A stretch of DNA of 64,000 nucleotides from Candidatus Latescibacterota bacterium (GCA_965203805.1 OZ241917.1:1344001-1408000), one strand, 5' to 3'; shown: positions 3,492-31,259, counted from the first letter of the stretch. Translations and numbers: made by a program. Notes: generated by a model from the sequence alone, not told the origin.

Positions 3492-3635
3492 TCGCCGTCA
3501 CCCGAAAAACTCCTCGTCACAACACCATTTGCTCCCCGCTGGCATTTCTATTGCACTGGATACGGCAAGCGACCGCCGGACGCATCGTCGGCCGCGGATA
3601 AATCGCCTGTTGCCAATCATTCGTGCACGATAGTC

Positions 3636-5468
3636 ATGCCAGGGGGGACGCTCGGGATGAGCGATTTCTTTCAATTCGACCGGGCCAGACCGAATCTGAC
3701 GTTCATCACACTGGCCGTCTGCATGCTGTCCGCTGTCGCGCCCTGTGCGCAGGAATCCCTCACACCTGAAACCGCGGAAACGTACCTGACCGTCTTGCGG
3801 GACCTGGAAGGCCGGGTCATCGACGTCAACAAGGCGAACGCGGATGACCTGACGGCGTTGCCCTGGATCTCACCGGAGGTGGCGCGCGGGGTGGTGGCCC
3901 ATCGAAGGCGGTTCGGACCCTTTCGTAGCATCGACGATCTTCTCAGAGTACCCGGCGTCACATCAGAGGTCCTCGCGGCCGTCCGGCCCTACCTGTCGAT
4001 ATCTTCCCGGCGCGGTCCCCGCGTCCGGACGTCACTCCGATTCACACGCCCGCCGAACCGTGCCACCGCCTGGCCCAATCTGAGGGTCTACCAGCGGACC
4101 GTGATCTCGGCACGGCACGTGGAAGGGGTTCTGCTTACGGAACGCGACCCCCTGGAACAACGGCTCGCGGACTTTCTCACCGGGTACGTGCGAGTCACCG
4201 CCGTACCGGGCGTGCAGCGGCTGCTCGTCGGCGCCTTCCGACCCGGATACGGACAGGGACTCCTTTTCAGCCGACACAACCGATCGGCGACCGGCCTCGA
4301 GTGGGCCCGGCCGGTCAGTACGCGAAGCGTGGGATATCGCTCTTCGATCGAAGACGGCGCGCTCCGGGGCGTGTTTGCGGAAGGCCGGGTGGGCCGGGTT
4401 ACGTGGGCGGCCATGGGTACCCGTAACCGGTGGGATGCCGCCATCGACAGTGCGGGGGTTGCAACGATCCGAACGGCGGACCTGCACGTCTCGCAAACCG
4501 AGCGGGAACGCAGGGGCAGGCTGCGGGAGGACCTGACGGCCCTTCGCTCCCACGTCGAACTGCCGGATGGCAGAATCGGCGCGACCCTCGTGCGAACGAC
4601 GTTTTCACCGTCGCTTCAGCATGTTCGACGCAGGCATTCCGCGGGGTTGGATTGGAACCTGCGCGGGCGCGGGCTGGACGTTTTCGGCGAGATCGCCGCC
4701 TCGGAAAGAAACGCCGTCGCCTGGCTGACGGGCGCGCGCGCGAGCTTCGACCGCCTGAGGCTGGTCGTCCTCGCCCGCAGGTACCCGGCTGGATTCTCAA
4801 GCCTGCGCGGTCGCCCGTTCTCCGCGTACAGCGGCAGAAACGAGTGGGGTCTGTTCGCCGGCGCCGTATGGCGGCCCGGGCGGCGGACACGGATCCAGGC
4901 CACGCTGGACCGGCACGGCCGCGTGGCGCCCGAGGGAAAGGACGCGCTGCCGGGACGGGGAGAGCGATTCTCGTTCGATTTGAAGCGTCGCCTGAAATAC
5001 GCGACCCTTCGGCTCACGATGGGCACGCGTCGTCAAACCGTGGCGACGTCCGGCATTACCGGCGTACGGGTCCGGAGACGCGCCCGCCTTCGCGTCGCCA
5101 TCCCGCGGTCACGCCCACGCCTCAATCTCTGGCTGGAGGGCGCGGGCGCCCGATCCCCGATCCGCGAGAGCGGCGGACGGGCGGCGGGCATGAACCTCCG
5201 GATCCAGCGCGGGACCCGACTCAGGGCCGACGCATGGCTGGCTCTGTTCGACGTGACCCACTTTGATTCCCGCATCTATACGTTCGAGCCCGACGTATGG
5301 GGAGGCAGCCGCCTGCAACTCCTGTCGGGCAGGGGCCGATCGGCGGGAGTCCGGCTCACCTTCGCGGGATCCCGCGCCCGCGTTTCCGTCCGCTACGCCG
5401 TTAAGGACACCCGGGACGGGGTTTCAAACACCTGGGCATCGCAGATCGAATTCGGCACCAGGAAATAA
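3636..5468 (+). CDS. ComEA-like helix-hairpin-helix protein with C-terminal beta-barrel-like region
   Basis: IDVNKANADDLTALPWI...GPFRSIDDLLRVPGV HhH motif; C-terminal amphipathic strands (RIYTFEPDV). Confidence 0.7.
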   Translation: MPGGTLGMSDFFQFDRARPNLTFITLAVCMLSAVAPCAQESLTPETAETYLTVLRDLEGRVIDVNKANADDLTALPWISPEVARGVVAHRRRFGPFRSIDDLLRVPGVTSEVLAAVRPYLSISSRRGPRVRTSLRFTRPPNRATAWPNLRVYQRTVISARHVEGVLLTERDPLEQRLADFLTGYVRVTAVPGVQRLLVGAFRPGYGQGLLFSRHNRSATGLEWARPVSTRSVGYRSSIEDGALRGVFAEGRVGRVTWAAMGTRNRWDAAIDSAGVATIRTADLHVSQTERERRGRLREDLTALRSHVELPDGRIGATLVRTTFSPSLQHVRRRHSAGLDWNLRGRGLDVFGEIAASERNAVAWLTGARASFDRLRLVVLARRYPAGFSSLRGRPFSAYSGRNEWGLFAGAVWRPGRRTRIQATLDRHGRVAPEGKDALPGRGERFSFDLKRRLKYATLRLTMGTRRQTVATSGITGVRVRRRARLRVAIPRSRPRLNLWLEGAGARSPIRESGGRAAGMNLRIQRGTRLRADAWLALFDVTHFDSRIYTFEPDVWGGSRLQLLSGRGRSAGVRLTFAGSRARVSVRYAVKDTRDGVSNTWASQIEFGTRK

Positions 5469-5504
5469 GCCTCCTGGACGCGGGAAATGTACCAATAGCC
5501 AAAT

Positions 5505-5535
5505 CGCAGGGTCAGGTTTGAAACCTGCCCCTGCG
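5505..5535. repeat. REP-like intergenic palindrome
   Basis: CGCAGGGTCAGGTTTGAAACCTGCCCCTGCG near-perfect hairpin downstream of a stop codon. Confidence 0.55.
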
Positions 5536-5767
5536 CAAGAGAGTGACAATTCATGACGTAAATCAGAATGGCCTTGCCGCCCTGATATCGGAAATTTGTT
5601 TCAGAATCAAAACGTGTGCTGTATTTTTCCCTTTCTGCAGTCCAGTCAATTAGGTATTATGCCCATCCAGCGGTCGAGACGGGCACGCAGAACCTGGATC
5701 CAATTGCCGGCAGCGACATTTGTCCGCCCGCCGGCAATTTTGCTTCTTTCGAAGCGGTTAACGGGAC

Positions 5768-6808
5768 ATGATGGCGAAGAATCGAAACCAATCCTGGATG
5801 TTGGGGGCCGTGCTTTGCGGGGTCATGCTGGCCGGATGCGGCCCCCGGCTGCCCGAATCGGTTGGACCCGCGCAGGAGATCCTGGTCCTGATCGATCCGG
5901 CCGACCGGCAGGGTCTGGAACCGCACCTTAAGGAGATATTCGAAAGAATACTCTATACGCCTCAGGAAGAGAAGATATTCCGGCTGCAGTTCGAAGATGT
6001 GGCCAATATCGACAGGTTTGAAAACAAGAGGCGAAAAAACATCCTGGTTGTCGCCGAACTGGACGCTCCCCACGCCACCGCGGGCTTCCTGAGAAGCATC
6101 CTGAGCCCGGACGTCCAGGACGCCGTGCGCGGGAACCGGTCCGCCGTATTCTGGAAAGAGGACGTATGGGCGAAAGAGCAGTTGCTGGTCGCGGTGTCGG
6201 GCGCGGATAGCGCAGCACTGTTGGACAACCTCAGGATGGAAGCGGACCGGCTCTACGAGCGGATCGAAGACGCCCGAAACGAGCGGATTCGGCGGTTGAT
6301 CTATCGCTACGGCGAACGGAAGGACGTCACCGAGCGCCTTGGGCGGGAATTCGGCTGGCAGGTGCGCGTGGCCTTCGGATACCGCATCCTGGAGGCCGAT
6401 CCCGACAGCGGATTCGTGGTATTGACCAAAGAGGAACCCAACAGGTGGCTGTTCGTCTACTGGGAGGACGGCATTTCTCCCGACGACCTCACGGAAGCGT
6501 GGTGCATCCGAAAACGGAACGACATTACGCGACGGTTTTTCGATCAGGACCGGATCGTGGACGATCACCTGCAGATCGGCCAGGCCGAGTTCGGAGGAAA
6601 ACTGGCGTTTGTTCTGCAAGGCCTCTGGGAAAACAGGAGAAAATGGGCCGGGGGCCCATTCAAGAGTTACGCGTTCGTGGATGTGGAAACCAACCGGTTT
6701 TTCTACATCGACTGCGGGGTATATTCACCAAACAAGCGGAAGGAACCCTATCTTCGCCAGATCGACCTTATGGCAAGGACCTTCGCTCAGGTGGAATCGA
6801 CACCCTGA
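5768..6808 (+). CDS. DUF4837-family lipoprotein
   Basis: Lipobox LAGC; TPQEE, DVWAKEQ, GLWE...GGPF..Y, YSPNKRK motifs. Confidence 0.7.
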   Translation: MMAKNRNQSWMLGAVLCGVMLAGCGPRLPESVGPAQEILVLIDPADRQGLEPHLKEIFERILYTPQEEKIFRLQFEDVANIDRFENKRRKNILVVAELDAPHATAGFLRSILSPDVQDAVRGNRSAVFWKEDVWAKEQLLVAVSGADSAALLDNLRMEADRLYERIEDARNERIRRLIYRYGERKDVTERLGREFGWQVRVAFGYRILEADPDSGFVVLTKEEPNRWLFVYWEDGISPDDLTEAWCIRKRNDITRRFFDQDRIVDDHLQIGQAEFGGKLAFVLQGLWENRRKWAGGPFKSYAFVDVETNRFFYIDCGVYSPNKRKEPYLRQIDLMARTFAQVESTP

Positions 6809-18678: not shown

Positions 18679-19662
18679 CTAAAGGAAATTCTCGCCCGCA
18701 TGATCAGAGAACGAATCGGCGTCGCGGATGTATTGCATGACCGTAGCTGGATTCGTATGTCGGGTGACCGCCATGATTTTGTCCAGCCGGGCACGATGTA
18801 CTGCTGCGCTAGTGACGAATCCCGCGCGTAACGAATGACCGGCAACTTCCTTTGGGTTGAGTCCAATCCTTGAGGCATAGTGCTTGACAATCCGCGGAAT
18901 GTCTGAGTGATGTAGCGGTCTCCCCTGCACGTGACCACCTCGCTTCATTGATTGAAACAACGGTCCTGACTTGATCCGAGATGCTCGTAGCCACACCTGA
19001 AGCCGGTGAATGGGTCGGATTACACTTCCGTCTAGAATTGCTATTCTTTGCCCGCGCCCCTGTTGATCCGTTTTGGACCGGCGGATTGTGAGGAACATGC
19101 GTCGACTCGACCCGTTTTCGGGCTCGAGGAACTCGACATCGTCAACCATCAAGTCGCAAATCTCCGATCGGCGGAGTGCACCAGCAAATCCAACCGAAAT
19201 AATCGCAGCGTCTCGACGCCCAATAGTTGTATCAGGGCATTGGGAGAGCATAGCCTGTATCTGGTATTCTCTCAACGCTTCTACTCGCCGACATGCCGTA
19301 CCCTTAAGCCGAGCCATGCCCTTGAGTGTCGCGCGAACGATAGGATGGTTTGTTGGCGATGACTTTCCTGCTTCGGTAAACTTCCTGTTGACTGCGCTCT
19401 TGTAAAGGGTCACTGTGCCCATTGATAACACCGTCCCGCTTCGCGCGCTCGGATTTGTTGCCAAATGTATGAGAAACCCTGCCACTTGGTCAGGCGAGGC
19501 AGACAACGGCTCGACAATTTCAACTTCGTCGCAATATTCAATGAATCTGGACCACCCTTTTTCGTACGCGATGCGTGTATTCCTCGCCAACGAAGAGAAA
19601 AGGACATCGGTGTGAAAGCTCTGTCCAATCATGCCCGAGGGATTCAACGAAAACTCCTCCAT
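18679..19662 (-). CDS. Tyrosine recombinase (Cre-like, with N-terminal SAM-like domain)
   Basis: GALRRSE (R), SKTDQ (K), GHSLRAG (HxxR), TRH, MQYIR (Y); start could be GTG 19683. Confidence 0.9.
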   Translation of the reverse strand: MEEFSLNPSGMIGQSFHTDVLFSSLARNTRIAYEKGWSRFIEYCDEVEIVEPLSASPDQVAGFLIHLATNPSARSGTVLSMGTVTLYKSAVNRKFTEAGKSSPTNHPIVRATLKGMARLKGTACRRVEALREYQIQAMLSQCPDTTIGRRDAAIISVGFAGALRRSEICDLMVDDVEFLEPENGSSRRMFLTIRRSKTDQQGRGQRIAILDGSVIRPIHRLQVWLRASRIKSGPLFQSMKRGGHVQGRPLHHSDIPRIVKHYASRIGLNPKEVAGHSLRAGFVTSAAVHRARLDKIMAVTRHTNPATVMQYIRDADSFSDHAGENFL

Positions 19663-19716
19663 TAAGGTCCGCCAGTGTCTCACAACTTGGAGATGTGACC
19701 GGATCGAACAATGTGG

Positions 19717-20489
19717 TATAGCAATTTACTACGGAATTAAAACGGGCTATAACGCAGCATTTATCATTGATAACGACACTAAGAACGCGCTGGTCGCTGA
19801 AGATCCAAACTCAGCTGCCTTAATCAAGCCTGTGCTCCGCGGACGGGACATAAAACGCTATCGGGCGAAGTGGGCGAATCTCTGGCTGATAGCAACTTTT
19901 CCTGCTCTGACACTCGACATCGATGATTTTCCAGCAGTGAAGAAGCATTTGCTATCTTTCGGCAAAGCGCGATTAGAACAATCGGGTAGAACCCTTCCGA
20001 ACGGCACGAAATCCAGGAAATATACTATGCACGCTTGGTATGAATTACAGGATACTTGCGCTTACCACGCAGAGTTTAGCAAGGAGAAGTTGATCTGGAT
20101 GGACCTAACAGAACGAGGCCGGTTTGCCTATGATATAGAGTGCCTATTCTGCGTAAACACGGCATTTATAATGTCAGGTCCATCAATCAAATATCTATGC
20201 GCCCTGCTTAATTCAAACTTGGTAACTTGGTTTATGAGGAACACGGCCCTGAATTCCGGAATGGGCGTAACTCGATGGATTAATGCTTCCTGTAGAACCA
20301 ATTCCAATCCCACAACTTACTGGTGCAGAGCAAGTTCCGTTTACGCTCTTAATGGACCGAATCCTTTCAGCCAAAACTGTAGGTCTTGATACTGACACCA
20401 GCGATCTGGAAGTGGAGATAGACCGGATGGTCTATGATCTCTACGGCCTTTCTGAGAAAGAAATCGCCGCGGTAGAGGACAAATCATAA
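19717..20489 (+). pseudogene. Silent inverted copy of the methyltransferase C-terminal target-recognition (TaqI_C-like) domain
   Basis: IAIYYGIKTGYN.AFIIDNDTK...IKPVLRGRDI.RY...CAYH.EFSK.KL.WMD...VYDLYGLSEKEI; no credible start; 1-nt frameshift near 20290. Confidence 0.8.
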
Positions 20490-20639
20490 GTAAACCAACT
20501 TCTGAAACACTACCGGGCAGTTTATCGTTTGTTATCGCGTTGCTGACCGGACGAACAGGATGAAATCCGCTCCTCTACCGCTAAGATCTCCGTCTCTGTG
20601 AGTCCGTACAATGCGTGAACCATATAATTAATCTCCGCT

Positions 20640-23600
20640 TCAATGGCGGCTACGTCGGCATTTGGATCGGCCTCTTTTGGCTTCCAATATGCGGTCGACC
20701 AAGCAGACGAAAGTGTTTTGCTTCGGGACCGAAATTCTAGGTATGGGCAGGTGTTCAACAGCGAATTTTTTCCATTGCAAAAGCCCCATTCCCGTTGTCA
20801 ATGCGTTGTTTTTCATCAACCAAGTAATAAGAGTGCTGTTCAGAATCGCGCAAAGGTATTTCAGGGATTCACCCGTTAAGAAAAACCCTTTGTCGTTGCA
20901 ATATATCTGCACCTTGGAGTAGGCAAATCTGCCACTATTTGACATGTCCATCCAGAAGAGCTTTTGCTTAGAGAATTCCTCATGGTAAGCGCAATTACGG
21001 AGATTGTACGGTGTACTGCCTTTGTCTTGCCGCTCTTCCAGTTGGGGAAAGAACTCGTCCAAATGGTTCTTGATGGCTGGGTATTCTTCAATATCGACAG
21101 CGGGAACATTGCCGTATCCATTGTGCGTGTCAATTAGCCAAAGGCCTGCCCAAAGGACACTGTAACGCTGAATATCTCTGCCGCGCAGCAGCGGCTTTAT
21201 TATTTCTGCCGAGCGTGAATCTTCGGTTATCAATGCTTCCTTAGTGTCGTTATCAATGACAAAGGCGTCATTGTAACCAGTAAGAACCCCTCGGTAAATT
21301 GCTATATCCCAATCTTTCAACGGCGTACCTCTAGCCTGCATCTTGTCCATAACGCTTTGTTCAGTGCGTGACAGGATGCTCCATGGCTTTTCGCCGCTCA
21401 GACGCGTTTGACCCCAAAACCCTTCTGGAGGCGGAAAATCACCGGTAGGCAGTTTGTCAATGTCGACAGCGCGGCAGACATTGTTGCCGTTACCCTCGCG
21501 GAGAATCAGAACACTGGTGTCAACGATTGTGTTTACAAAGACGTCCTTACCCATCTCCAAAAGGCGAAGGGGCGTGTGTCGCTCCGAGAAATACCGACGA
21601 AGGGCCTTGCCGTATTCAGCCTTCAACCAACTGTTGGAGGTGATGTAAGCCAACAACCCCTGGGTAGGCTTCAGTAGTTGACAACCCTTCTCGTAGAAAA
21701 GCTGGTAAACATCCCCAGTACGGACAAAGGTTTCAAAGCCGGTTTTCTTGTATCGCTTTCCCAACTCTCCACCGTTTTTTTGCAATTGAATGTACGGCGG
21801 ATTCCCAATAACGACATTGAAGCCATCTTCGATTCCGAACATATACTTGGTGTCAAACCAATCCGCCTTCGCATTCTGATCATAGGACTTCCACCGGGCG
21901 ATTTTTCGAGCATCTTCAAAGCTTAAATCAAACTCTCCCTTTCGTATCTTGAACTTTTTCTGTTCTTCAATGCGCAGTTGTTCGCGGTGTTCTGCATTGG
22001 GTATTTGTGCGATTCTTCGTTCAATCTCCCGTTGCTCTCTCCCGACCCAATTTGCTCGTAGGGCTTCTAATTCACGTTCCAATTGATCTAGCAGATCTTT
22101 TTCCTGGCGGATATACTGGAGTTTTTTCGGGCGATTGTTGGCAAGAAAATACCTCGCGCGAATCGCCTCGATTTGCATTCGGAATTGCTGAACTTTGTTG
22201 TCTTGAAGAAGCGAGTGTACTTCGTAAAGCTTAAGGCCGACGAGCGTGTCTGCGGCAACAAATCGGGTCTCCAAATTCGGCAGCGGTTTGATCCCTAAGT
22301 TTTTTTTCTTCTCATCTGGATCCTGTTCAATTGCCAGTGAAATAAAAAAGCGCAATTTAGCAATCTGACAGGCTACAGGCTGAATGTCCACGCCAAAAAT
22401 GCTGTTCTGGATGAGGTAGAGCTTGCGCCCGAAGTCTCCGGAATACCGTTGAAAGGTATCGCTAATCTCTAGCAGTTGGGCGTCGCGTTCATGTTGGTTT
22501 ATATTCTCAAACGCCGCGTCCGCCTCTGCTCGCGCGCGTTCCCTTTGAAGTGCTTTCCAGCGCAGGTTGCGGGGGTCAAGCCTTCTAAGGGCCAGGGTCA
22601 ACTTGTGCAGCATGCCCATCGGAAACGCGCCGGAACCGACTGCTGGGTCCAGCACTTTCATCTTGGCAATGGCGTGCACAATGGCCTCCGCCTCGACTTC
22701 CTCAAAGAGTTCATTGGCATCATCAAATGCGTCTTCATAATCCAGCAGGTAGCGTAACCGCTCTTCCCAGAATTCCCCATTGCCGTCCGCTGGAAGAACA
22801 TCCTTCTTCAGCGTCGCCAAGACTACTTCATCCACCATATAGTCAACTACCGCGCGGGGCGTGTAGTACGAGCCGGTCCGCCTGCGCGCAGTGTCTTGAG
22901 TTTCAGGGTTGTACGCAGCGAGAAGGTTCTCGAAAACTTTGCCTAGCAATTCCGGATCTAGGGCGACTTCCTGCTCTATAGGTGTATTTTCCTCTACTGT
23001 GAACTTGTAATTGTTGAACAGCGTGATAAGCCCTTCTCCACCAAAAAACAGGTGATTTGGGATGGAATATTCGCGACGCTGAGCAGGGTTGTCGGTAAAG
23101 CAGTCGAGGCGCGCGCCTCCCGCCCCGACGGCTTCAAAGTCGTCCAGGCAGTCAAACAGACCGCCGTTGATAAAGGGCGTTTGCGCAAACAGTTCGAGCA
23201 ATCCATCCGGGTCGGTCATTTCCTTTCTGTATCGGTACACTGAAGGATTGCGGTGGTCAGCGCGATTCTGCCTGCTAAAACGACGTTTATCAATTTCGGT
23301 GTTGAGAGTAGCAAAAAACAAGTTCTGCAATATGGCGCGGTAGTAGGAGTCGCCTGTTTGGAGGTCGAAGTCTTCCAGTAGTTCGCTGACCTTCTGCTCA
23401 ATGAACAAGCCCTCGGCGATCAGCTTCTTTTCCTTAATGAACCAGACGAACATTAAGCGGGTAATGAGGCGGATCGTATGCTCTTCGGGTTCCAGAGTCT
23501 TAGCTTCGTTCGCAGGAAACTTCGCGTCGGAGACGGCTCTTTCAAACCAATCGAAGAGTTCGCCGTAGAACCGCCGATTGAGTTCCTCCGTATCCAATTT

Positions 23601-24266
23601 GTCCAACCAGGCGGCCAGCAGGCCGTCGAAATTGTTCGGCTTGTTGTGGAGATCCATCCACGTAGTGCACTCGGTCAGCGACAACTCAGCCAATATGTCC
23701 AGATGGGCGCGGTGGGGATTCTTCGGTGCAATCTCACGTATCAAAGACACTTTGCCCAATACATCGCGCGCAGGGTCGCGCTTGTGCTCTCGGCGGTGAA
23801 CAAAGGCAAGAGTCAGCAGATTGGATGTTGTGCGGAAGAGAACGACGGAGGGTTGGCTCAGGCGTTTGTTGATCTCACGGGTGAATCGCGCGTACTCCCC
23901 TCGAGTGCAGGTCGATTCCTTGAGTTCAACGGAGAAGAAGACGAAGCTTTGCTGTTGTCCCTTGTCAAAGGTAGCGGAATCAAATCCGATCGTAGGATGG
24001 GTGCTGGCGCCGACCTCGTCGCTTGTCACCTGAAAAATCAACTTCACGGACTCCGTCAGTTTGCGAAACTCCTCTTCGGACTTTGTGTTTTGATTTGGGG
24101 CCGGGAATTCACGAATAAAGTCGTCCACACTTCCTGGTAATTCCTCGGTGCGCTCGCTTTGATAGCCCAGCACTTCGAACAGGCGTTTCGCTGCCACCTC
24201 AAAGTCGTCATCATGGATTCCGTTTAGCGCCGAACAAATATCTTCTCTGATGTCTGGCTGTGTCAT
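20640..24266 (-). CDS. Eco57I-like Type IIG restriction-modification enzyme / N6-adenine DNA methyltransferase
   Basis: PFINGGLF, DPELLGKVFENLL, GSYYTPR, VLDPAVGSGAF (motif I), GVDIQ, VIGNPPY (motif IV), C-terminal TRD; apparent +1 frameshift near 20676 moves the natural C-terminus (to about 20522) out of frame. Confidence 0.88.
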   Translation of the reverse strand: MTQPDIREDICSALNGIHDDDFEVAAKRLFEVLGYQSERTEELPGSVDDFIREFPAPNQNTKSEEEFRKLTESVKLIFQVTSDEVGASTHPTIGFDSATFDKGQQQSFVFFSVELKESTCTRGEYARFTREINKRLSQPSVVLFRTTSNLLTLAFVHRREHKRDPARDVLGKVSLIREIAPKNPHRAHLDILAELSLTECTTWMDLHNKPNNFDGLLAAWLDKLDTEELNRRFYGELFDWFERAVSDAKFPANEAKTLEPEEHTIRLITRLMFVWFIKEKKLIAEGLFIEQKVSELLEDFDLQTGDSYYRAILQNLFFATLNTEIDKRRFSRQNRADHRNPSVYRYRKEMTDPDGLLELFAQTPFINGGLFDCLDDFEAVGAGGARLDCFTDNPAQRREYSIPNHLFFGGEGLITLFNNYKFTVEENTPIEQEVALDPELLGKVFENLLAAYNPETQDTARRRTGSYYTPRAVVDYMVDEVVLATLKKDVLPADGNGEFWEERLRYLLDYEDAFDDANELFEEVEAEAIVHAIAKMKVLDPAVGSGAFPMGMLHKLTLALRRLDPRNLRWKALQRERARAEADAAFENINQHERDAQLLEISDTFQRYSGDFGRKLYLIQNSIFGVDIQPVACQIAKLRFFISLAIEQDPDEKKKNLGIKPLPNLETRFVAADTLVGLKLYEVHSLLQDNKVQQFRMQIEAIRARYFLANNRPKKLQYIRQEKDLLDQLERELEALRANWVGREQREIERRIAQIPNAEHREQLRIEEQKKFKIRKGEFDLSFEDARKIARWKSYDQNAKADWFDTKYMFGIEDGFNVVIGNPPYIQLQKNGGELGKRYKKTGFETFVRTGDVYQLFYEKGCQLLKPTQGLLAYITSNSWLKAEYGKALRRYFSERHTPLRLLEMGKDVFVNTIVDTSVLILREGNGNNVCRAVDIDKLPTGDFPPPEGFWGQTRLSGEKPWSILSRTEQSVMDKMQARGTPLKDWDIAIYRGVLTGYNDAFVIDNDTKEALITEDSRSAEIIKPLLRGRDIQRYSVLWAGLWLIDTHNGYGNVPAVDIEEYPAIKNHLDEFFPQLEERQDKGSTPYNLRNCAYHEEFSKQKLFWMDMSNSGRFAYSKVQIYCNDKGFFLTGESLKYLCAILNSTLITWLMKNNALTTGMGLLQWKKFAVEHLPIPRISVPKQNTFVCLVDRILEAKRGRSKCRRSRH

Positions 24267-24432: not shown

Positions 24433-26069
24433 CCTGACTAATTCATGAAACTGAACGGAACAGTGTTTTTGGAAGCAAAAAGTGATCTATAGAAGGGGAA
24501 ATAGTCAAATGACGTGTTGGTGACGGGATAATGCGTAATTTTGGGTGGTCTGTCAGCATCGAGGGGTGTCGAGTTCTTTGATTTGTGGATGGAAAGGACA
24601 GACGGATGCCTTGGTCTTACTTTTGGCGATGAGAAAGGGACGGCGGGGCCTGCGTGAAGCGTCTGCGTTATGGAACTGCCTTTGCCAAATTGCATAGGAT
24701 GGTGCCATAGAGGTGTTTCAAGGGAAATGAGGTTGGCAAATGGAGTTTGATTTTGGTTTTGAGTTCGGACACTCTCCCGGCGACTTTGAGGATGCGATTC
24801 TGAATGGTATTAAACTGCGCGTGCGTCCATTGGGTGGTCCGGAGTCCTTTTTCGGTAAGGGTGTGCATCAGGACATAAGCGGCACTATGCAGGAAGAGAC
24901 GGAAGTGATTGGCTTCGAAGGTGTGGCAGGAGGTACGATCGGAATGGAGGAAGGTTTTGTGATTCTTGATGAAGTTTTCCATCCTGCCTGCCTGGCCGGC
25001 AGACAGGCCGCGCGCACAATAGACGGTTTTGTAGAGGAATGAGGGCTGGCTACTCTTCAGGTTGGTGACGACAAAGCGTGTATTGGCTTGTCCGGAAGCG
25101 GTGATTTCAGCTTTGTAGATGATGCGTCTTGGCACGGCCCACGAATCTGCCTGGTAAGCGAAACTGGTAAATCGCTGCACAGGCTGTCCGGTCTCCCGAT
25201 ACTGTGCCTTTGCCTGCTCGATCAGCGCGTGTCCCCGTTGTGCAAGCCTGGCATTGCCCGTCTGTCCCAGCACGAAATACACCTCTTGCTCGTCGCAGAA
25301 GTCGTGGACCTCGGGACAGGAAAAATGGCCGTCGCCACGCAAAAAGAGTCGCACGTGCGGCCACGCCTCGCGAAGGCGTTTCACCAGTCGCTTGAGAACG
25401 GTGACAATCTGTTTGCCGGTAGGACGGGCGCCCGGACGCAAAAGCGTCGTGATCAGTCTTCCTGTCTGCCCTTCATAGATATGCAAGGGACAGTAACAGC
25501 GTTCACCATAATAGCCATTGAACATCGCCAACTGTTGACAGCCGTAAACCTCGTCGTCGGTGTCATCGATATCCAGAACGACCGCGTTGGGAGGCCGCTT
25601 GTAGGACGCGATAAACCCGTCCACAAGGGCCTCGGCAATACGATATAAGTCCCGGCGACGAATGCCGTTTTCCAATCGACTCATCGTGGGTTGGCTGGCC
25701 AACGGCCCCCCTGATATCGGCAACCGACCACAGGCCGCCTTGAACGCGGGGTCAAAGCGCAGCAAATCGCAATCGTTCGCATCTTCATACGCGCACGCGA
25801 TCTGAAACACACGCTGGCTGATCAGATCCGACATCGTGTGATCCCTGCCTGCGCCAAGTGCAGCGCGGCAGGCAGGCTGGTGAGCACACCGCCGTCGAAG
25901 ACGGCTTCCACCTGCTTGCCAGAAACACTTGCGAACGGAACTGTGAGTTGACTATCTTGACCTTCCACGGTAGTTTCCTCCTGTTTCATTGTGTTATGGT
26001 TATTCGCCTAACCATAATATAATACAATGACTTGGGTAAGGAAACTACCTTTTTTGTGAATAATTGGGG
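24433..26069 (-). mobile_element. Second IS1380-family element (1637 bp), degenerate
   Basis: IRs CCTGACTAATTCAT / GTGAATAATTGGGG; CTAG duplication at 24429-24432 and 26070-26073. Confidence 0.9.
24668..25968 (-). pseudogene. IS1380-family transposase, frameshifted and internally deleted near the N-terminus
   Basis: True start GTG 25968 (MEGQDSQLTVPFASVSGKQVEAVFDGGVLTS) is out of frame with the 388-aa ORF; about 33 codons are replaced by a palindrome. Confidence 0.85.
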
Positions 26070-26355: not shown

Positions 26356-27975
26356 TCAATTTGCGAACATTTCTGGCTCCAGGAGGTCGCGCGACCAACG
26401 GCGCAGGCGGCTGATTGCCTTTACCTTGATTTGGCGGATGCGTTCGCGTGTGAGACTCATCATCACGCCGATTTCCTCCAATGTATGGCTGTCGCTGCCA
26501 TTCAGCCCAAAATGCAGGCCGATTACTTCCGCCTCGCGTGGTGGGAGGCGCTCAAGCGCTTCCTCAATCAATAACAGCGCCGATTCGCGCATAACATCGG
26601 CATCTGGCGCGGCGATTTTTTCATCGGCCAAAATTTCGAGCAGACTCCGTTTATCCTCGGTGAAGGGTTCGTGGAGGGCATATACACTACCAGCACTCAA
26701 GATGGTTTCAATGATCTTTTCTGCTTGAAACCCTAGTTTCGCAGCTATTTCTTCCACAACTTCCTGGGACAGTCGTTCAAGTTCCGTGGTTCTAAATCCA
26801 GGGGTGTGCCCGTTAGACGGCTCGTGATGTAATACTCTTGATATGTCCTTTAGCAAGGCGACCCTGTTGAGTGGCAGACGTACAACCCGCACATGCTCGT
26901 CGACTGATTTCAATATCGCCTGGCGAATCCACCAAACTGCATACGTGATGAATTTATGACCCAAAGATCCATCAAAGCGGCCAGCCGCTTCTATCAAACC
27001 TATGTTACCAGCGCCAATCAAATCAGAAAGCGGCAGACCACGATTCTGATATCGTTTCGCTTCGTTAATGACGAAGCGCAAATTGGCGCAGATCATCTCG
27101 TCACGCGCTTCCATGTCACCATATTTGATTCGGCCAGCCAGTTCTACTTCGCGTTCTCTGGAAAGGGGTGTGGAATCAGCGACATCGTCGAAATAAAGCC
27201 GCAGGTTATTCTCCTCTCCTTCAGGAAACCTGGCCTCAGGCTCCACCTGCTCAAGCCAGTCCTTTGTATACCGGTAGAATGTCTGGCCGCGTTCTGTGGT
27301 GTCCATTTTAGATAGCCAAGCGTTCAGCAAGCCGTCACAGTTGCACGACCTAAGATTGGCGTTAAGCCATCTGGTGCACTCGAGAAGCGACAGTTCAGTC
27401 AGGACATCCAGATCGCCACGGCGTGGATTGTCCGTCTGAATTTCTCTACTCAACGAGGTAACTCGTTCCAGCACATCAAGAGTGATATCAAGCTTGTTAG
27501 GCCGGCGACTGATAACGGCGATGGTCAAGAGTGCTCCGGATCGGAAAAAAACCACCACTGGAACTTTCACTCGCTTGTCGATCTCCCTGGTGAATTCGTC
27601 ATATATACCTCGGGGATAGTCACCTCCCTTAAGTTCCACCGCGAAGAAAAGAATGCTTTGCTGCCGACCCTCTTCAATCGAAGAAGCCCGATCCCGTAGC
27701 GTTTTTGGATTCTCAGAAGCGATCTCATCGTTTGTCAGTTGAAAAACAATCCTCACAGACTGGACATGCTTGCGAAATGCCCGCTCATTCCTGGTGTTTG
27801 ATTTCCGTGCCGGAAACTCGTCGATAAAGCCATCCACATCGCCGGAAAGATCCAGGGTACGGTCACTCCGATAGCCGAGGACTGCGAGCAGGTCCTTAGC
27901 TGCCTCAATCAAATCGTTGTTTGATGAAGCTTCCAGAGAGGCTTTGATTCTTCCTCGGATATCTGACATGCTCAC
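26356..27975 (-). CDS. Fusion: R-M N-terminal domain (about 255 aa) plus RpoD/RpoS-like sigma-70 factor (regions 1.2-4)
   Basis: N-terminus colinear with the N-terminus of 20640..24266; then LRLYF..V...PLSREREVEL, ANLRFV..AKRY.NRGL..DLI..GNIGL..AA.RFD, F.TYAVWWIRQAI, TLEEIG....TRERIRQI. Confidence 0.85.
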   Translation of the reverse strand: MSMSDIRGRIKASLEASSNNDLIEAAKDLLAVLGYRSDRTLDLSGDVDGFIDEFPARKSNTRNERAFRKHVQSVRIVFQLTNDEIASENPKTLRDRASSIEEGRQQSILFFAVELKGGDYPRGIYDEFTREIDKRVKVPVVVFFRSGALLTIAVISRRPNKLDITLDVLERVTSLSREIQTDNPRRGDLDVLTELSLLECTRWLNANLRSCNCDGLLNAWLSKMDTTERGQTFYRYTKDWLEQVEPEARFPEGEENNLRLYFDDVADSTPLSREREVELAGRIKYGDMEARDEMICANLRFVINEAKRYQNRGLPLSDLIGAGNIGLIEAAGRFDGSLGHKFITYAVWWIRQAILKSVDEHVRVVRLPLNRVALLKDISRVLHHEPSNGHTPGFRTTELERLSQEVVEEIAAKLGFQAEKIIETILSAGSVYALHEPFTEDKRSLLEILADEKIAAPDADVMRESALLLIEEALERLPPREAEVIGLHFGLNGSDSHTLEEIGVMMSLTRERIRQIKVKAISRLRRWSRDLLEPEMFAN

Positions 27976-30900
27976 GCCTCAGCAACAATCAGCCAAGTGA
28001 TTAGCTCAAAGTCAGAGTTACTCGGTTTCGCAGATTTAATTGGGAGTCTGGATTCGCGTTGACCTTGAATACCAAGCTCTCTTATCTGCGTTGCCGTGTT
28101 CGCGCCACCGATTTCAGCAATGACCGCGTTCAACAGCTTGTCGTAACTTGCCATGTCTTTCCCGTTCTGTGTTTCTCGATCAAACTGATCGCACAAAGCT
28201 TGAATGGGTTCGGTCTTTCCTATGGCCACCGACTCGAACAACTCGAGCACTTGGCGCGCGTTGGCGCAACCGTACCTAATTTGTCCAGTGCTGCGAATGT
28301 ACGCCAGATAGTATGGATGAATCGGACTCGCCATTTTTTCCCGTCTGTCTTTAGTTGCGTTGCGCCGCCGCAGGAAAAATATCACTCCCCGTGCCGGCGA
28401 ATTGTCTTCGCCGTGGGTTACCGCATACGCACCGTTCGGCGTTGTTTCCAATTCAGTCCTATTTCGTTCAAGATAGCGTAATAACTGTGAGAAGAAATAA
28501 TCCAGCGTGAAATCACTGATTACGACGCCATCCGTGACTTGGTCCAGATCGAGGACTTCCTCGCGTAGTTGCTGAAGTTGCCGGTCTCGAAAATTGAGCT
28601 CCCTCTGAACCCCGTCATATGTGTCTTCATCCAGGGGATCATCAGCCCCGCTTGCCGCCGCGTCGGCAAGCGCCATGCGTGCCTGCACCCGGCATTGCAG
28701 GCGCAGATAGACTTCCATATCGTCCGTAGGCCAGTAATTTATCATCCTTACCGCTTTGCTGCGGCTTCCAATCCTGTCGATGCGCCCGAAGCGCTGGATG
28801 ATTCGAATCGGATTCCAGTGGATATCGTAGTTCAGGACGGTATCGCAATCCTGCAGGTTTTGACCTTCCGAGATGCAGTCGGTCGCAATCAGCAAGTCAA
28901 TCTCACCGTTGATAGCGCCATTACGACCACGTGCCCTAGGCGAAAAATTGGTTAGAATGGCGTTGAAGTTGCGAGCGCCAAACTTCGCATGCGTCACGTC
29001 CCCCGCGACCATGGCCATATTCAAGCCTAATCCTTCCACTAAGCTACCTAAGTTTTCGTAGAGGTATTCCGCCGTATCCTTGAAGGTCGTAAAAATGAGA
29101 ATTTTGCGATTCAACCTGCCGTCCTTGTCCGTCGTTGGACTATTCACCCTGTTTCGAATGTGCTCTTTGATTTTTCTCAGCTTTCCGTCCCGGTCGGGTG
29201 AGATCGTCCGGACTTTCTGCCATGCCGCGTCAAGTGTTTCCTTATCTGTTAGTAGATCAGCCCTCCAGCGTGGCAGGTCGAGTTCACGCAGATGATAGGG
29301 ATTGCGTGCTCGATTAACGAGAAACTCCTCATCGTCATCATCATCGTCCGGAAGGATATCGGCTTGAGATGACACCGCAGCCCGGGTTTCCAGGAAACTG
29401 TCGATTTTTGCGACCAAATCGTCAATCTTCCTCACGGTCCGCCCAAGTGTTTCGGATAATGAATGCGCGGAGCTTTCCAATCGCTTGAGAAAGTTCGTCC
29501 GAATCATGCCAATGAGAAATCGCTCACGATCCTCCTGGTTGAATCTAAGGGTCCGTTTTTCATCCGCCAGTCGTCGTTTTGCCTCTTCACTGGTAACGTA
29601 TCTGGAAGGCCTGTAGACAGAAAGGGCGAATTCTTCTATCTGTTCAGCGAGACCCTTATACGAGAGTCTACCAGTCAGGTCGGTACGCGGATGGTGGTTT
29701 TCGGGTTTTCGTTGTATTGGGAATTCACCAATTCGATCCATTTCGTCGGCGTAGAATGTCTCGATCTGGCGTCGCGACCGGGCAATCGAAATTCCGCCTA
29801 ACAATCCGAAGAAATCTGCGCCTAGTTGTTCCAGCAGTTTTGATTTGTCCTTCTTCCCAGTCTGAGCAGTGGTGTTCTCCCATGACTTAAATTCCCTTTG
29901 GGCTTGCTTCAGCATCACATCAATATTGCCGATTCCCAAGCTCTCGCGAAATACATCCTGGCGTCCTTCCGTCATCAGGTAAATCTGATTACGAAGATCA
30001 ATTAGTGATGTGTTAACAGGGGTCGCCGAAAGCATTAGCACCTTTGTCTGCGTACCCTCCTTTATCACCTCTTCCAGCAAACGGGAATAGCGACTGTGTC
30101 GTATATTGCCGTATTCATCTTTTCGAGGCGTTGAGTCATTCCTGAAATTATGAGACTCGTCGATAACAACCATATCAAAATTCCGCCAATTGAAGTTCGC
30201 CAGTTCGATTTGCCCGGATCTTCCGCTAATTCGGGTCAGATCTGTATGCGAGAGCAACGTATATCCGAAGCGGTCGTCGTCGAAGGGATTGTTCTCATGT
30301 GCGTTATAGGCCGGATACAAAGCCCAATTATCGTGCAGCTTTTTGGGACACAATACCAGCACACGTTCATTTCTCAGCTCAAAGTATTTGATAACGGCAA
30401 GCGCAGTATATGTCTTTCCCAAACCCACGCTATCAGCCAGAATGCAACCGTTGTGTCTAAGCAAGCGTGTAATGACGCTCTTTGCGCCGTCCTTCTGAAA
30501 GTTGTACAACGCATTCCAGATAGCCGTATCGTACAGGTGCGTGTCTTTAATGTTCTGATCTCTAGCTTCCCTCGCATCGATATCGTCCCGGAATAACTGA
30601 TAAAGCGTCTTGAAATAGATCAGTTCCGGTGAATGGTCCTTGCCGATCCGGTTGAGAGCATCGAGAACATCCGTTTTTGCATTGCGGGTTAGTTTCGTGT
30701 CTGTCCACAGATCGTCAAACCACGCGCCCAATTCGGCACGAATTACCGAATCAGAGGCTGCGAGGTTGATTTCGACGTTTGCCCCCTCCTCGCAGCCAAG
30801 TCCCCTCTTGGTAAAGTTGGAACTCCCGACCACCGCCGCTCCTCCATCGGACGATTCAGTTAAATGCATCTTGCCGTGAAGAAAGTTGGATATTCCAATG

Positions 30901-31259
30901 GATCGAATACGGACACCCCTTCTTCGCACCCATTCCTCGCACCTTCGCGCCAGGTATTTCTGTTGGAGAACATGATGCGGCGAGAGGCCGTCCTCCGTCA
31001 GGTCGTAAGATTTCGGCTCTTTCTCTCCCGGGTCCAATTCACCCACGGATGCCGGATCGCCGAACAGAAAGCGGACATCTTTTAGGCCTCGAAGTTCGGA
31101 TTCCAAAGCCTCATATCCGTAAATCGTGAAATATGCTGAAACGAGGCGGTACACGTCGGCATCGGACAGGTGCGTGCGCAGAAAATCGGCAACGCTGTGG
31201 CGCCGATTGTCAAGAATATGCTCGTACGCGGAGAATTCAGCTTTTTTCGTATCGGTCAT
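27972..31259 (-). CDS. PLD-nuclease-domain SNF2/SF2 helicase
   Basis: LHGKMH...GSSNFT (PLD HxK), LADSVGLGKT, IDESHNFRN, LSATP, ISEGQNLQD, QRFGRIDRIGS. Confidence 0.88.
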   Translation of the reverse strand: MTDTKKAEFSAYEHILDNRRHSVADFLRTHLSDADVYRLVSAYFTIYGYEALESELRGLKDVRFLFGDPASVGELDPGEKEPKSYDLTEDGLSPHHVLQQKYLARRCEEWVRRRGVRIRSIGISNFLHGKMHLTESSDGGAAVVGSSNFTKRGLGCEEGANVEINLAASDSVIRAELGAWFDDLWTDTKLTRNAKTDVLDALNRIGKDHSPELIYFKTLYQLFRDDIDAREARDQNIKDTHLYDTAIWNALYNFQKDGAKSVITRLLRHNGCILADSVGLGKTYTALAVIKYFELRNERVLVLCPKKLHDNWALYPAYNAHENNPFDDDRFGYTLLSHTDLTRISGRSGQIELANFNWRNFDMVVIDESHNFRNDSTPRKDEYGNIRHSRYSRLLEEVIKEGTQTKVLMLSATPVNTSLIDLRNQIYLMTEGRQDVFRESLGIGNIDVMLKQAQREFKSWENTTAQTGKKDKSKLLEQLGADFFGLLGGISIARSRRQIETFYADEMDRIGEFPIQRKPENHHPRTDLTGRLSYKGLAEQIEEFALSVYRPSRYVTSEEAKRRLADEKRTLRFNQEDRERFLIGMIRTNFLKRLESSAHSLSETLGRTVRKIDDLVAKIDSFLETRAAVSSQADILPDDDDDDEEFLVNRARNPYHLRELDLPRWRADLLTDKETLDAAWQKVRTISPDRDGKLRKIKEHIRNRVNSPTTDKDGRLNRKILIFTTFKDTAEYLYENLGSLVEGLGLNMAMVAGDVTHAKFGARNFNAILTNFSPRARGRNGAINGEIDLLIATDCISEGQNLQDCDTVLNYDIHWNPIRIIQRFGRIDRIGSRSKAVRMINYWPTDDMEVYLRLQCRVQARMALADAAASGADDPLDEDTYDGVQRELNFRDRQLQQLREEVLDLDQVTDGVVISDFTLDYFFSQLLRYLERNRTELETTPNGAYAVTHGEDNSPARGVIFFLRRRNATKDRREKMASPIHPYYLAYIRSTGQIRYGCANARQVLELFESVAIGKTEPIQALCDQFDRETQNGKDMASYDKLLNAVIAEIGGANTATQIRELGIQGQRESRLPIKSAKPSNSDFELITWLIVAEA

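Follow-up and report, generated by a model that had tools for sequence, protein, structure and literature searches.

Programmed inversions of Type II restriction-modification (RM) enzymes were predicted, and confirmed with long reads, by Milman, Yelin, and Kishony (Nucleic Acids Research (NAR), 2023; PMC9881135). Three inverting classes are named in that account: DISARM-like enzymes, homologues of Cj0031 (some of which lie beside a gene for a PLD+SNF helicase) and the PglX protein of BREX; the confirmed loci it reports come from Actinobacteria, Bacteroidetes, Firmicutes, and Proteobacteria. Allelic diversity of the recognition domains of Type IIG genes has also been described (Furuta et al., 2010; PMC2853133). 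Here we report a related locus from an uncultured bacterium, found in a stretch of 64,000 nt from Candidatus Latescibacterota bacterium (GCA_965203805.1 OZ241917.1:1344001-1408000; this whole stretch is called the window, and all coordinates refer to it unless a locus is named), in which the gene of a Type IIG-like enzyme lies tail-to-tail with a spare copy of its own recognition domain and beside the gene of a tyrosine recombinase. It is very probable that this locus is a programmed recognition-domain switch driven by the recombinase. As programmed inversions of Type II enzymes have already been published, no new mechanism is involved; the locus is a well-supported further example, to which are added the phyla, an exact mapping of the crossover and a map of the exchangeable modules.

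The published loci which the present one most resembles are those of the Campylobacter jejuni Cj0031 homologues (e.g., in Bacteroides ovatus), as described in the 2023 account: a long Eco57I enzyme that trades its C-terminus for that of a partial copy in inverted orientation, with a recombinase in the vicinity, a PLD/HKD-Snf2 gene beside it, and both variants in the sequencing data (PMC9881135). Of the features of gene-altering inversions given there, a size asymmetry between the copies, in-frame repeats, a recombinase and both orientations are present here, the last at the level of contigs, and a difference in function between the variants is presumed. However, the host differs, being an uncultured member of the Latescibacterota, and the cassette is common to Dehalococcoidia, the likeness to the published examples being one of description rather than of compared homology; three nested sites and a reassortment of sub-modules, documented by comparing loci, are also additional to what that comparison provides. 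By titles and abstracts, our literature search returned no account of such a locus type in Latescibacterota or Dehalococcoidia, the supplements of PMC9881135, which possibly list predicted loci, lying outside the search. Gut relatives of the window enzyme are 37-41% identical to it and belong to the same family (L038, L046, L053, L055, and L060; L-numbers denote related enzyme loci, of which 64 were found by relatedness to the enzyme and L078-L081 were added through a search with the recombinase), and one of them, L038, has an inverted spare domain.

An earlier reading of the window, made from its sequence alone (the sequence-only reading), had likened the locus to the Type I hsdS switches. 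In hsdS inversion (e.g., pneumococcal SpnIII; PMC7672463) a recombinase swaps expressed and silent recognition domains at short inverted repeats within the coding sequence, giving several specificities. HsdS is, however, a separate subunit with two domains, whereas the window enzyme has a single domain fused to its methyltransferase, and the inversions of Eco57I-type Type II enzymes were already in print (PMC9881135). The inversion of pglX in the type 1 BREX system of Lacticaseibacillus rhamnosus is similar in having a methyltransferase of the Eco57I type of ~1200 amino acids, an adjacent recombinase and nested inversions of recognition parts (PMC9881135, crediting its reference 42). Unlike that system, the window protein is not a PglX and its entire C-terminus is swapped by one inversion, so that switching at the repeat designated site B below would involve no non-functional intermediate. 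A further likeness is to the R64 shufflon, in which the tyrosine recombinase Rci swaps C-terminal segments of one gene at several crossover sites; there, however, the product is a pilus adhesin, and multiple separate segments take the place of one spare cassette with internal sites.

The enzyme gene (20640..24266, minus strand; 1208 amino acids as assembled, from the list of open reading frames (ORFs) and the translation) encodes an N-terminal domain, a gamma-class N6-adenine methyltransferase in which the NPPY motif could be read, and a TaqI_C recognition domain. The Pfam matches were Eco57I (2.1e-33, residues 621-910) and TaqI_C (5.1e-12, residues 1024-1175), together with N6_Mtase and MmeI_Mtase, the C-terminal target recognition domain thus lying within the same chain as the methyltransferase; the best PADLOC model was REase_MTase_IIG (2.7e-145), and the sequence matches in the PDB were adenine methyltransferases (7lni at 6.3e-10, and TaqI). 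The promoterless spare copy, identified in the translations (19717..20489, plus strand), is inverted relative to this gene and far smaller, with ~257 codons against the 1208 amino acids of the full protein, and matches TaqI_C (9.6e-15) and, weakly, MmeI_TRD. It shares 54% identity with enzyme residues 984-1167; outside the repeats, the identity between the two copies is 58% at the DNA level and ~52% at the protein level, where 94 of 182 aligned residues agree. The recombinase gene, whose product of 334 amino acids is the presumed invertase, lies on the downstream side of the enzyme gene and in the same orientation (18679..19683, minus strand; Phage_integrase, 7.9e-16). The sequence-only reading had proposed a start-less paralogue tail-to-tail with the expressed gene and next to a tyrosine recombinase. 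The orientation and the neighbour are as it described, and the differences it listed between the putative specificity loops (YRGVLTG/YYGIKTG; CNDKGF/CVNTAF; LLQWKKF/VTRWINA) can be read in the translations, but the copy is not strictly start-less: no stop interrupts its frame upstream as far as an ATG at 19631, which lies antisense within the recombinase gene.

The two copies are connected by inverted repeats at three places. Site B, which encodes I-D-N-D-T-K (residues 1004-1009 of the 1208-residue protein), is a 20-bp repeat whose left arm (19764..19783) is the exact reverse complement of its right arm (21240..21259) inside the expressed gene; this is the crossover site established here, and the invertible segment of 1456 bp between the arms (19784..21239) holds the bodies of both recognition-domain copies. 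Site A (I-A-I-Y), a possible second crossover site, is a 13-bp repeat with equally exact arms (19717..19729 and 21294..21306), and site C (C-A-Y-H), at the boundary of the recognition-domain sub-modules, has a 12-bp exact core (20056..20067 and 20983..20994) seated in 78-nt arms that are 71% complementary (20053-20130 / 20920-20997). The 13-bp and 20-bp repeats, both of which had been claimed before, were established by direct string comparison and exact-match scans, a general repeat listing having contained neither pair. They lie in equal codon phase in the two copies, as the sequence-only reading also held, and the frame is thus kept on inversion. Besides the 20-bp pair, the 64-kb window contains no other exact inverted repeat of at least 20 bp within 3 kb, and each of 30 Markov simulations produced none. 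The 10-mer GTTATCAATG, which lies within the 20-bp arm, is found twice in direct order, 23 bp apart (21226-21235 and 21249-21258), in the expressed-type body, and the same doublet is present in the corresponding copy of L006; it may be a sub-site for the recombinase.

Both orientations of the segment, for which the sequence-only reading had suggested that sequence data be searched, were found in material from a single strain. Four public runs containing the stretch (X1-X4) were compared as Logan contigs, which derive from a 31-mer graph. X2 and X3 are from one sample and X4 from another, all three being of the same strain as the window; X1 is from a separate study and represents a diverged relative (24-61 other letters per piece), whose bins give no cover past 21394 and are uninformative there. 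Record 9 of X2 (11,115 nt, depth 4.2) carries 19784-21239 on the plus strand and both matched flanks (18600-19783 and 21240-21609) on the minus strand, with 0 other letters over 18600-21609. Its joints, 19783/21239 and 19784/21240 on opposite strands, leave 20 letters that fit both sides and fall within the 20-bp repeat. This record is the inverted form of the arrangement held by the window assembly, and both of its junctions stand in the one contig with at least 255 letters on each side. The contigs of X3, X4, and X1 break exactly at the repeat edges; in X3, for instance, successive pieces run up to 19729, from 19717 to 19783, from 19764 to 21259, from 21240 to 21306 and from 21294 onward. 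Since a 31-mer graph should cross a 20-bp repeat, such breaks imply that both junctions are present. The contig ends at 19717/19729 and 21294/21306 (X3 and X1 contigs end at 19729, and contigs of 67 nt begin at 19717) also fit inversion at site A, which is likely, though unproven, to be active in this strain.

The position of the crossover is given by L006, a locus from a metagenome-assembled genome of the same Latescibacterota genus, where the spare-type body occupies the expressed slot (89% amino-acid identity) and the expressed-type body the spare slot (88%). Over the 1456-bp segment the window and L006 are 88.3% identical when one is inverted but 63.5% when they are collinear, whilst the 34-nt “heads” upstream of the 20-bp repeat remain collinear, at 94% and 97% identity against 53% crosswise; the crossover therefore maps to the 20-bp repeat. 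The inversion that had been predicted, at ~1.6 kb, is thus found both in the X2 contig and in L006, and spans 1456 bp between the 20-bp arms.

A survey of homologous loci, another suggestion of the sequence-only reading, revealed the same arrangement elsewhere. The last 330 residues of each enzyme were compared by tblastn with the 4 kb downstream of its own gene (a tblastx self-comparison of the 64 loci, which are GC-rich, was too noisy and was replaced), and by this test and an earlier comparison of the loci an inverted downstream spare domain was found in 5 of the 64 related loci (L006, L011, L012, L015, and L038); the recombinase adjoins it in four of these, and the contig of L038 ends before that point. 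The tblastn test was invalid for L013, L015, L016, L035, L048, L064, and L067, in which the following of the frame ended early, and impossible for L034, L046, L053, L055, L058, L060, L066, and L068, which have at most 33 nt downstream, and for these loci only the earlier locus comparison counts. With the recombinase as query, a homologue was found in 6 of 40 related genomes. Four genomes of the same order gave L078-L081, each with enzyme, inverted spare domain and recombinase; the contig of G006 ends directly after the recombinase, and G011 matches the arrangement of L006. The complete set stands together in nine loci from two phyla (the window, L006, L011, L012, L015, and L078-L081). In every one of the nine, GAYAAYNNNACNAAR (I/V-D-N-x-T-K) occurs once per strand and an exact repeat of 17-44 bp lies at the IDNxTK site. 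The middle codon of GAYAAYNNNACNAAR varies among loci (GAC, CTG, CAG, CGG) but is identical in both arms of each, a co-variation which coding constraint alone does not explain.

Comparison of the nine loci also resolves the recognition domain into modules. The C-A-Y-H repeat is exact over 33-45 bp in L011, L012, and L015, against 12 bp for that of the window. The sub1 modules fall into two types, one copy of each being present in every locus, and the sub2 modules into three; of the six possible pairings of sub1 with sub2, none is missing. Inversions at sites B and C would generate four states, of which L011, L012, and L015 represent three, and L079 and L080 differ by two nested inversions at these same sites. 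In L080, L081, and probably L015 the head between IAIY and IDNxTK has changed slots, and such swapped heads point to a third crossover site at IAIY, the 13-bp repeat of the window. By these comparisons, the sub-modules reassort at C-A-Y-H and probably also at I-A-I-Y. Among the remaining loci of the 64, the recombinase occurs only as a fragment of 90 amino acids (82% identical), in L028 (10294-10563), where it lies beside an enzyme with an unrelated recognition domain; in L030 (9269-9643) a partial recognition-domain copy lies downstream in direct rather than inverted orientation. Both arrangements are possibly relics of lost switches.

Several points weigh against a switch driven by its own recombinase, and the first concerns the recombinase itself. 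When compared with NCBIfam release 20 it gave only weak matches of the Xer type (the best at 62.4 bits against a cut-off of 220) and fell into no named invertase family; its action on these repeats is presumed. It could be an unrelated neighbour, e.g., the relic of a mobile element, and the inversion, whilst real, could be the unprogrammed result of rare RecA-type recombination at short repeats under coding constraint. The repeats do encode conserved protein motifs, so that some identity is expected anyway, and the surrounding low-GC defence island is rich in mobile DNA (two insertion sequences (IS); GC 0.50 against 0.60-0.64 in the flanks). However, the identity of the repeats extends to synonymous positions: where the two copies share a residue, the codon is also the same for all 10 such residues within the repeats but for 28 of 76 elsewhere (Fisher p = 1.3e-4), and 285 of the 20000 shuffles of the codon columns produced an exact run of 20 or more. 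In every one of the nine loci the two arms co-vary, both orientations occur in the material of one strain with 0 other letters, and a recombinase homologue (58-88% identical) stands in the same place and orientation in all nine evaluable loci with a spare domain, the residues R171/R172, K204, H283-x-x-R286, H309, and Y318 being invariant in 8 of 8 homologues. A length of 20 bp, moreover, does not exceed the minimum that RecA usually needs for efficient recombination. We consider the unprogrammed explanation improbable, and presume that the recombinase next to the spare copy carries out the inversion.

The second point concerns the kind of data. The inverted form is supported by assembled contigs rather than raw reads, the inverted contig having a depth of 4.2, and contigs give no frequency, reversibility or within-clone switching; two fixed sub-strains would look alike. 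It could be argued, then, that no switching takes place here, and that two stable sub-strains co-exist or that one orientation is an assembly artefact at the repeat, the window assembly having two single-letter errors in this same region. Such a view has very little to recommend it, as a contig can be carried across a 20-bp repeat only by 31-mers that reach over the junction, and a single contig contains both junctions, as the breaks at the repeat edges recur in three further runs from two samples and a second study, and as the flipped state has been independently fixed in L006 and other relatives. We infer that the inversion is frequent and reversible.

The smaller sites are subject to further reservations. 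Inverted pairs of 13 bp are common (18 observed against 10.6 expected), so the repeat at site A is by itself within chance and is meaningful through its collinear position only; the loose end of X3 at 21294 shows a third head variant from some relative, and the breaks at site A may come partly from other organisms. At site C the breaks in X4 and X1 (20056-20085 / 20983-21012) fall at spikes in depth (80-170) that stem from other organisms, and the contigs of X2 and X3 pass through the site unbroken. On these two grounds the site C breaks were rejected as evidence of inversion in this strain, in which inversion at site C is unsupported. As for function, a difference between the orientations in methylation and restriction specificity is suggested by the ~52% identity of their TaqI_C domains, and the enzyme gene, which has an IS ~400 bp upstream of it, is presumed to be expressed.

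Finally, the window assembly has a +1 frameshift near the 3' end of both copies, at ~20291 in the spare copy and ~20679 in the enzyme, and owing to these two extra letters annotation pipelines would label both copies as pseudogenes. Every X2, X3, and X4 contig, however, is without one letter at 20291 and one at 20679, so that both copies are intact there and the enzyme ends at 20522. With the letter at ~20679 removed, the enzyme frame continues to a stop at 20522-20524 (~1247 amino acids), and the conserved C-terminal tail of the enzyme sits in this alternative frame past ~20679. The extra letters are probably consensus errors at a locus where the reads are heterogeneous, and they are taken as such solely because the contigs of three same-strain runs are without them. 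That the locus is instead a decaying duplication, in which the enzyme is a pseudogene and the spare copy a functionless relic, is hardly credible: the assembly frameshifts in both copies, the IS upstream of the enzyme gene and the splitting of a neighbouring pAgo gene by another IS could be read in this way, but both frames are restored in the same-strain contigs, L006 reads through in frame at both places, and the 175-codon bodies of all 18 copies in the nine loci have zero stops. In the Dehalococcoidia locus L015 (8880-8920) there is a stop or frameshift in the head of the expressed gene just ahead of the IDNxTK site, which may be a similar error or a true inactivation.

The sequence-only reading had further described the product as a single-chain enzyme. 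Its recognition domain is indeed fused to the methyltransferase, but the single-chain part is doubtful, because the N-terminal domain appears to lack a conserved D...ExK and because an HKD-Snf2 gene is the usual neighbour immediately upstream. An alignment of 24 N-terminal domains shows neither an acidic residue nor an ExK lysine that is invariant, and a model of the domain (predicted local distance difference test (pLDDT) 82.5) gave no match at E of 0.001 or below when compared with the PDB by Foldseek; its best VIA match, to the N-terminus of the Type IIL enzyme DrdV (7lo5_A; Z 5.9, root-mean-square deviation 3.7, 116 aligned), is weak, falling short of the level at which real arrangements can be told from common ones. 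In 47 of the 64 related loci the enzyme is preceded by an HKD-Snf2 homologue whose end is at most 120 nt away, and 58 of them have such a gene somewhere in the flanks. In the window this gene, encoding an HKD(PLD)-Snf2 helicase/nuclease (27972..31259, minus strand; Pfam PLDc_2, SNF2-rel_dom, and Helicase_C), is separated from the enzyme by a sigma-fusion gene and an IS. The HKD-Snf2 protein and the methyltransferase-recognition protein are likely to form a functional unit whose only specificity determinant would be the recognition domain.

Two other identities of the enzyme were considered and rejected. The first was the PglX of BREX, to which the NCBIfam scores were 73 bits against a cut-off of 500 (BREX-1) and 47.7 against 400 (BREX-2); among the window ORFs scanned there was no match to the BrxC/PglZ families. 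The second was DrmMI of class 1 DISARM, which the enzyme matched only in part (1.7e-17, where the Type IIG model gave 2.7e-145). For the helicase, the PADLOC model HKD+Snf2 (5.2e-108) is a better fit than DrmD (9.8e-35), and DUF1998 (DrmA/DrmB) was likewise absent among the window ORFs scanned.

The switch may be envisaged as follows. The 3' end of the enzyme gene encodes the sole recognition domain, of the TaqI_C type, from residue ~1004 to the C-terminus, and the adjacent tyrosine recombinase would recombine the 20-bp repeat at the junction of methyltransferase and recognition domain. Each flip of the 1456 bp would place the alternative recognition domain in frame behind the 1003 N-terminal residues, which are constant. 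The cells of one strain thus exist in at least two forms, presumably methylating different DNA sequences and presumably also restricting different sequences, either with the HKD-Snf2 partner or by means of the N-terminal domain of the enzyme itself. In the family as a whole, the two further sites (C-A-Y-H in the middle of the domain and I-A-I-Y upstream) would allow the sub-modules to be reassorted by nested inversions.

A more ambitious interpretation, which combines three propositions and which, taken as a whole, we put forward only tentatively and regard as rather doubtful, is that the three nested sites (IAIY, IDNxTK, and CAYH) act as a combinatorial shufflon within one fused recognition domain, with up to eight enzyme variants per cell line from head, sub1, and sub2; that the cassette travels together with a recombinase of its own between symbiont phyla (Latescibacterota and Dehalococcoidia) that are unrelated but share one host habitat; and that the enzyme is the specificity subunit of a two-gene HKD-Snf2 system, so that the switch would retarget a translocating nuclease instead of a single-chain Type IIG enzyme of the classical kind.

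The surroundings of the switch contain a number of other genes. The protein encoded between the HKD-Snf2 gene and the enzyme (26356-27975, minus strand; 539 amino acids) is a fusion in which one part is paralogous to the N-terminal domain of the enzyme, with 47% identity to its residues 3-258, and the other is a sigma-70 factor that is complete (regions 1.2-4; MzaA-like in NCBIfam, below the cut-off), and such a joining of a defence-enzyme domain to a sigma factor is unusual. The fusion occurs in this position in this Latescibacterota order only, being also present in L006 (1804-3204), where the paralogous N-terminal domain has a faint match to DUF4391 (0.0067), and in L079 and L080, in both of which it lies directly before the enzyme. 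The IS upstream of the enzyme gene encodes a DDE_Tnp_1_4 transposase (24668..25834, minus strand; Pfam 2.2e-132). Besides the HKD-Snf2 protein and the sigma-70 fusion, the island contains a pAgo gene (PADLOC pAgo), of which the N-terminal half (15791..17023) and the PIWI half (13106..14143) are split by an IS with another DDE_Tnp_1_4 transposase (14255..15589), and a pAgo-associated Cas4-like nuclease (17027..17929). The two IS, which flank the region, have no detectable DNA similarity to each other; the ideas that they make up a composite element or serve as another substrate for inversion were rejected for this reason. A perfect 15-bp inverted repeat (15797-15811 / 17015-17029) brackets the pAgo N-terminal ORF of 410 amino acids almost exactly, but may be meaningless, as 13-bp pairs are common by chance. 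Consensus scans gave 11 promoter-like sites against 5.4 expected, with nothing decisive, and no terminator-like site on the minus strand between the enzyme and recombinase genes. In L006, the position of the upstream IS is taken by a Schlafen/AlbA_2-HATPase_c_4 protein and a ParA-like AAA_31 ATPase (3616-5870), and a TIR-domain protein lies past the recombinase (12046-13062); these differing neighbours show a rapid turnover of the island about a conserved switch.

For annotation, the consequence of such loci is that assemblies break at them, errors enter the consensus, and genes take on the look of pseudogenes; the spare copy should not be annotated as one. The locus is also a clean natural case in which the crossover is mapped to ~20 bp by two relatives and by metagenomic contigs, and the map of modules, with its two sub1 types, three sub2 types, and all six combinations, amounts to a natural experiment on how domains of the TaqI_C type read DNA. 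The range of phase-variable recognition switching hereby comes to include fused Type II enzymes of symbiont phyla that are uncultured and lie outside the set confirmed in 2023. For the organism itself, a host-restricted symbiont population would hold several methylation and restriction specificities at once, which would be a form of bet-hedging against phages in a dense community.

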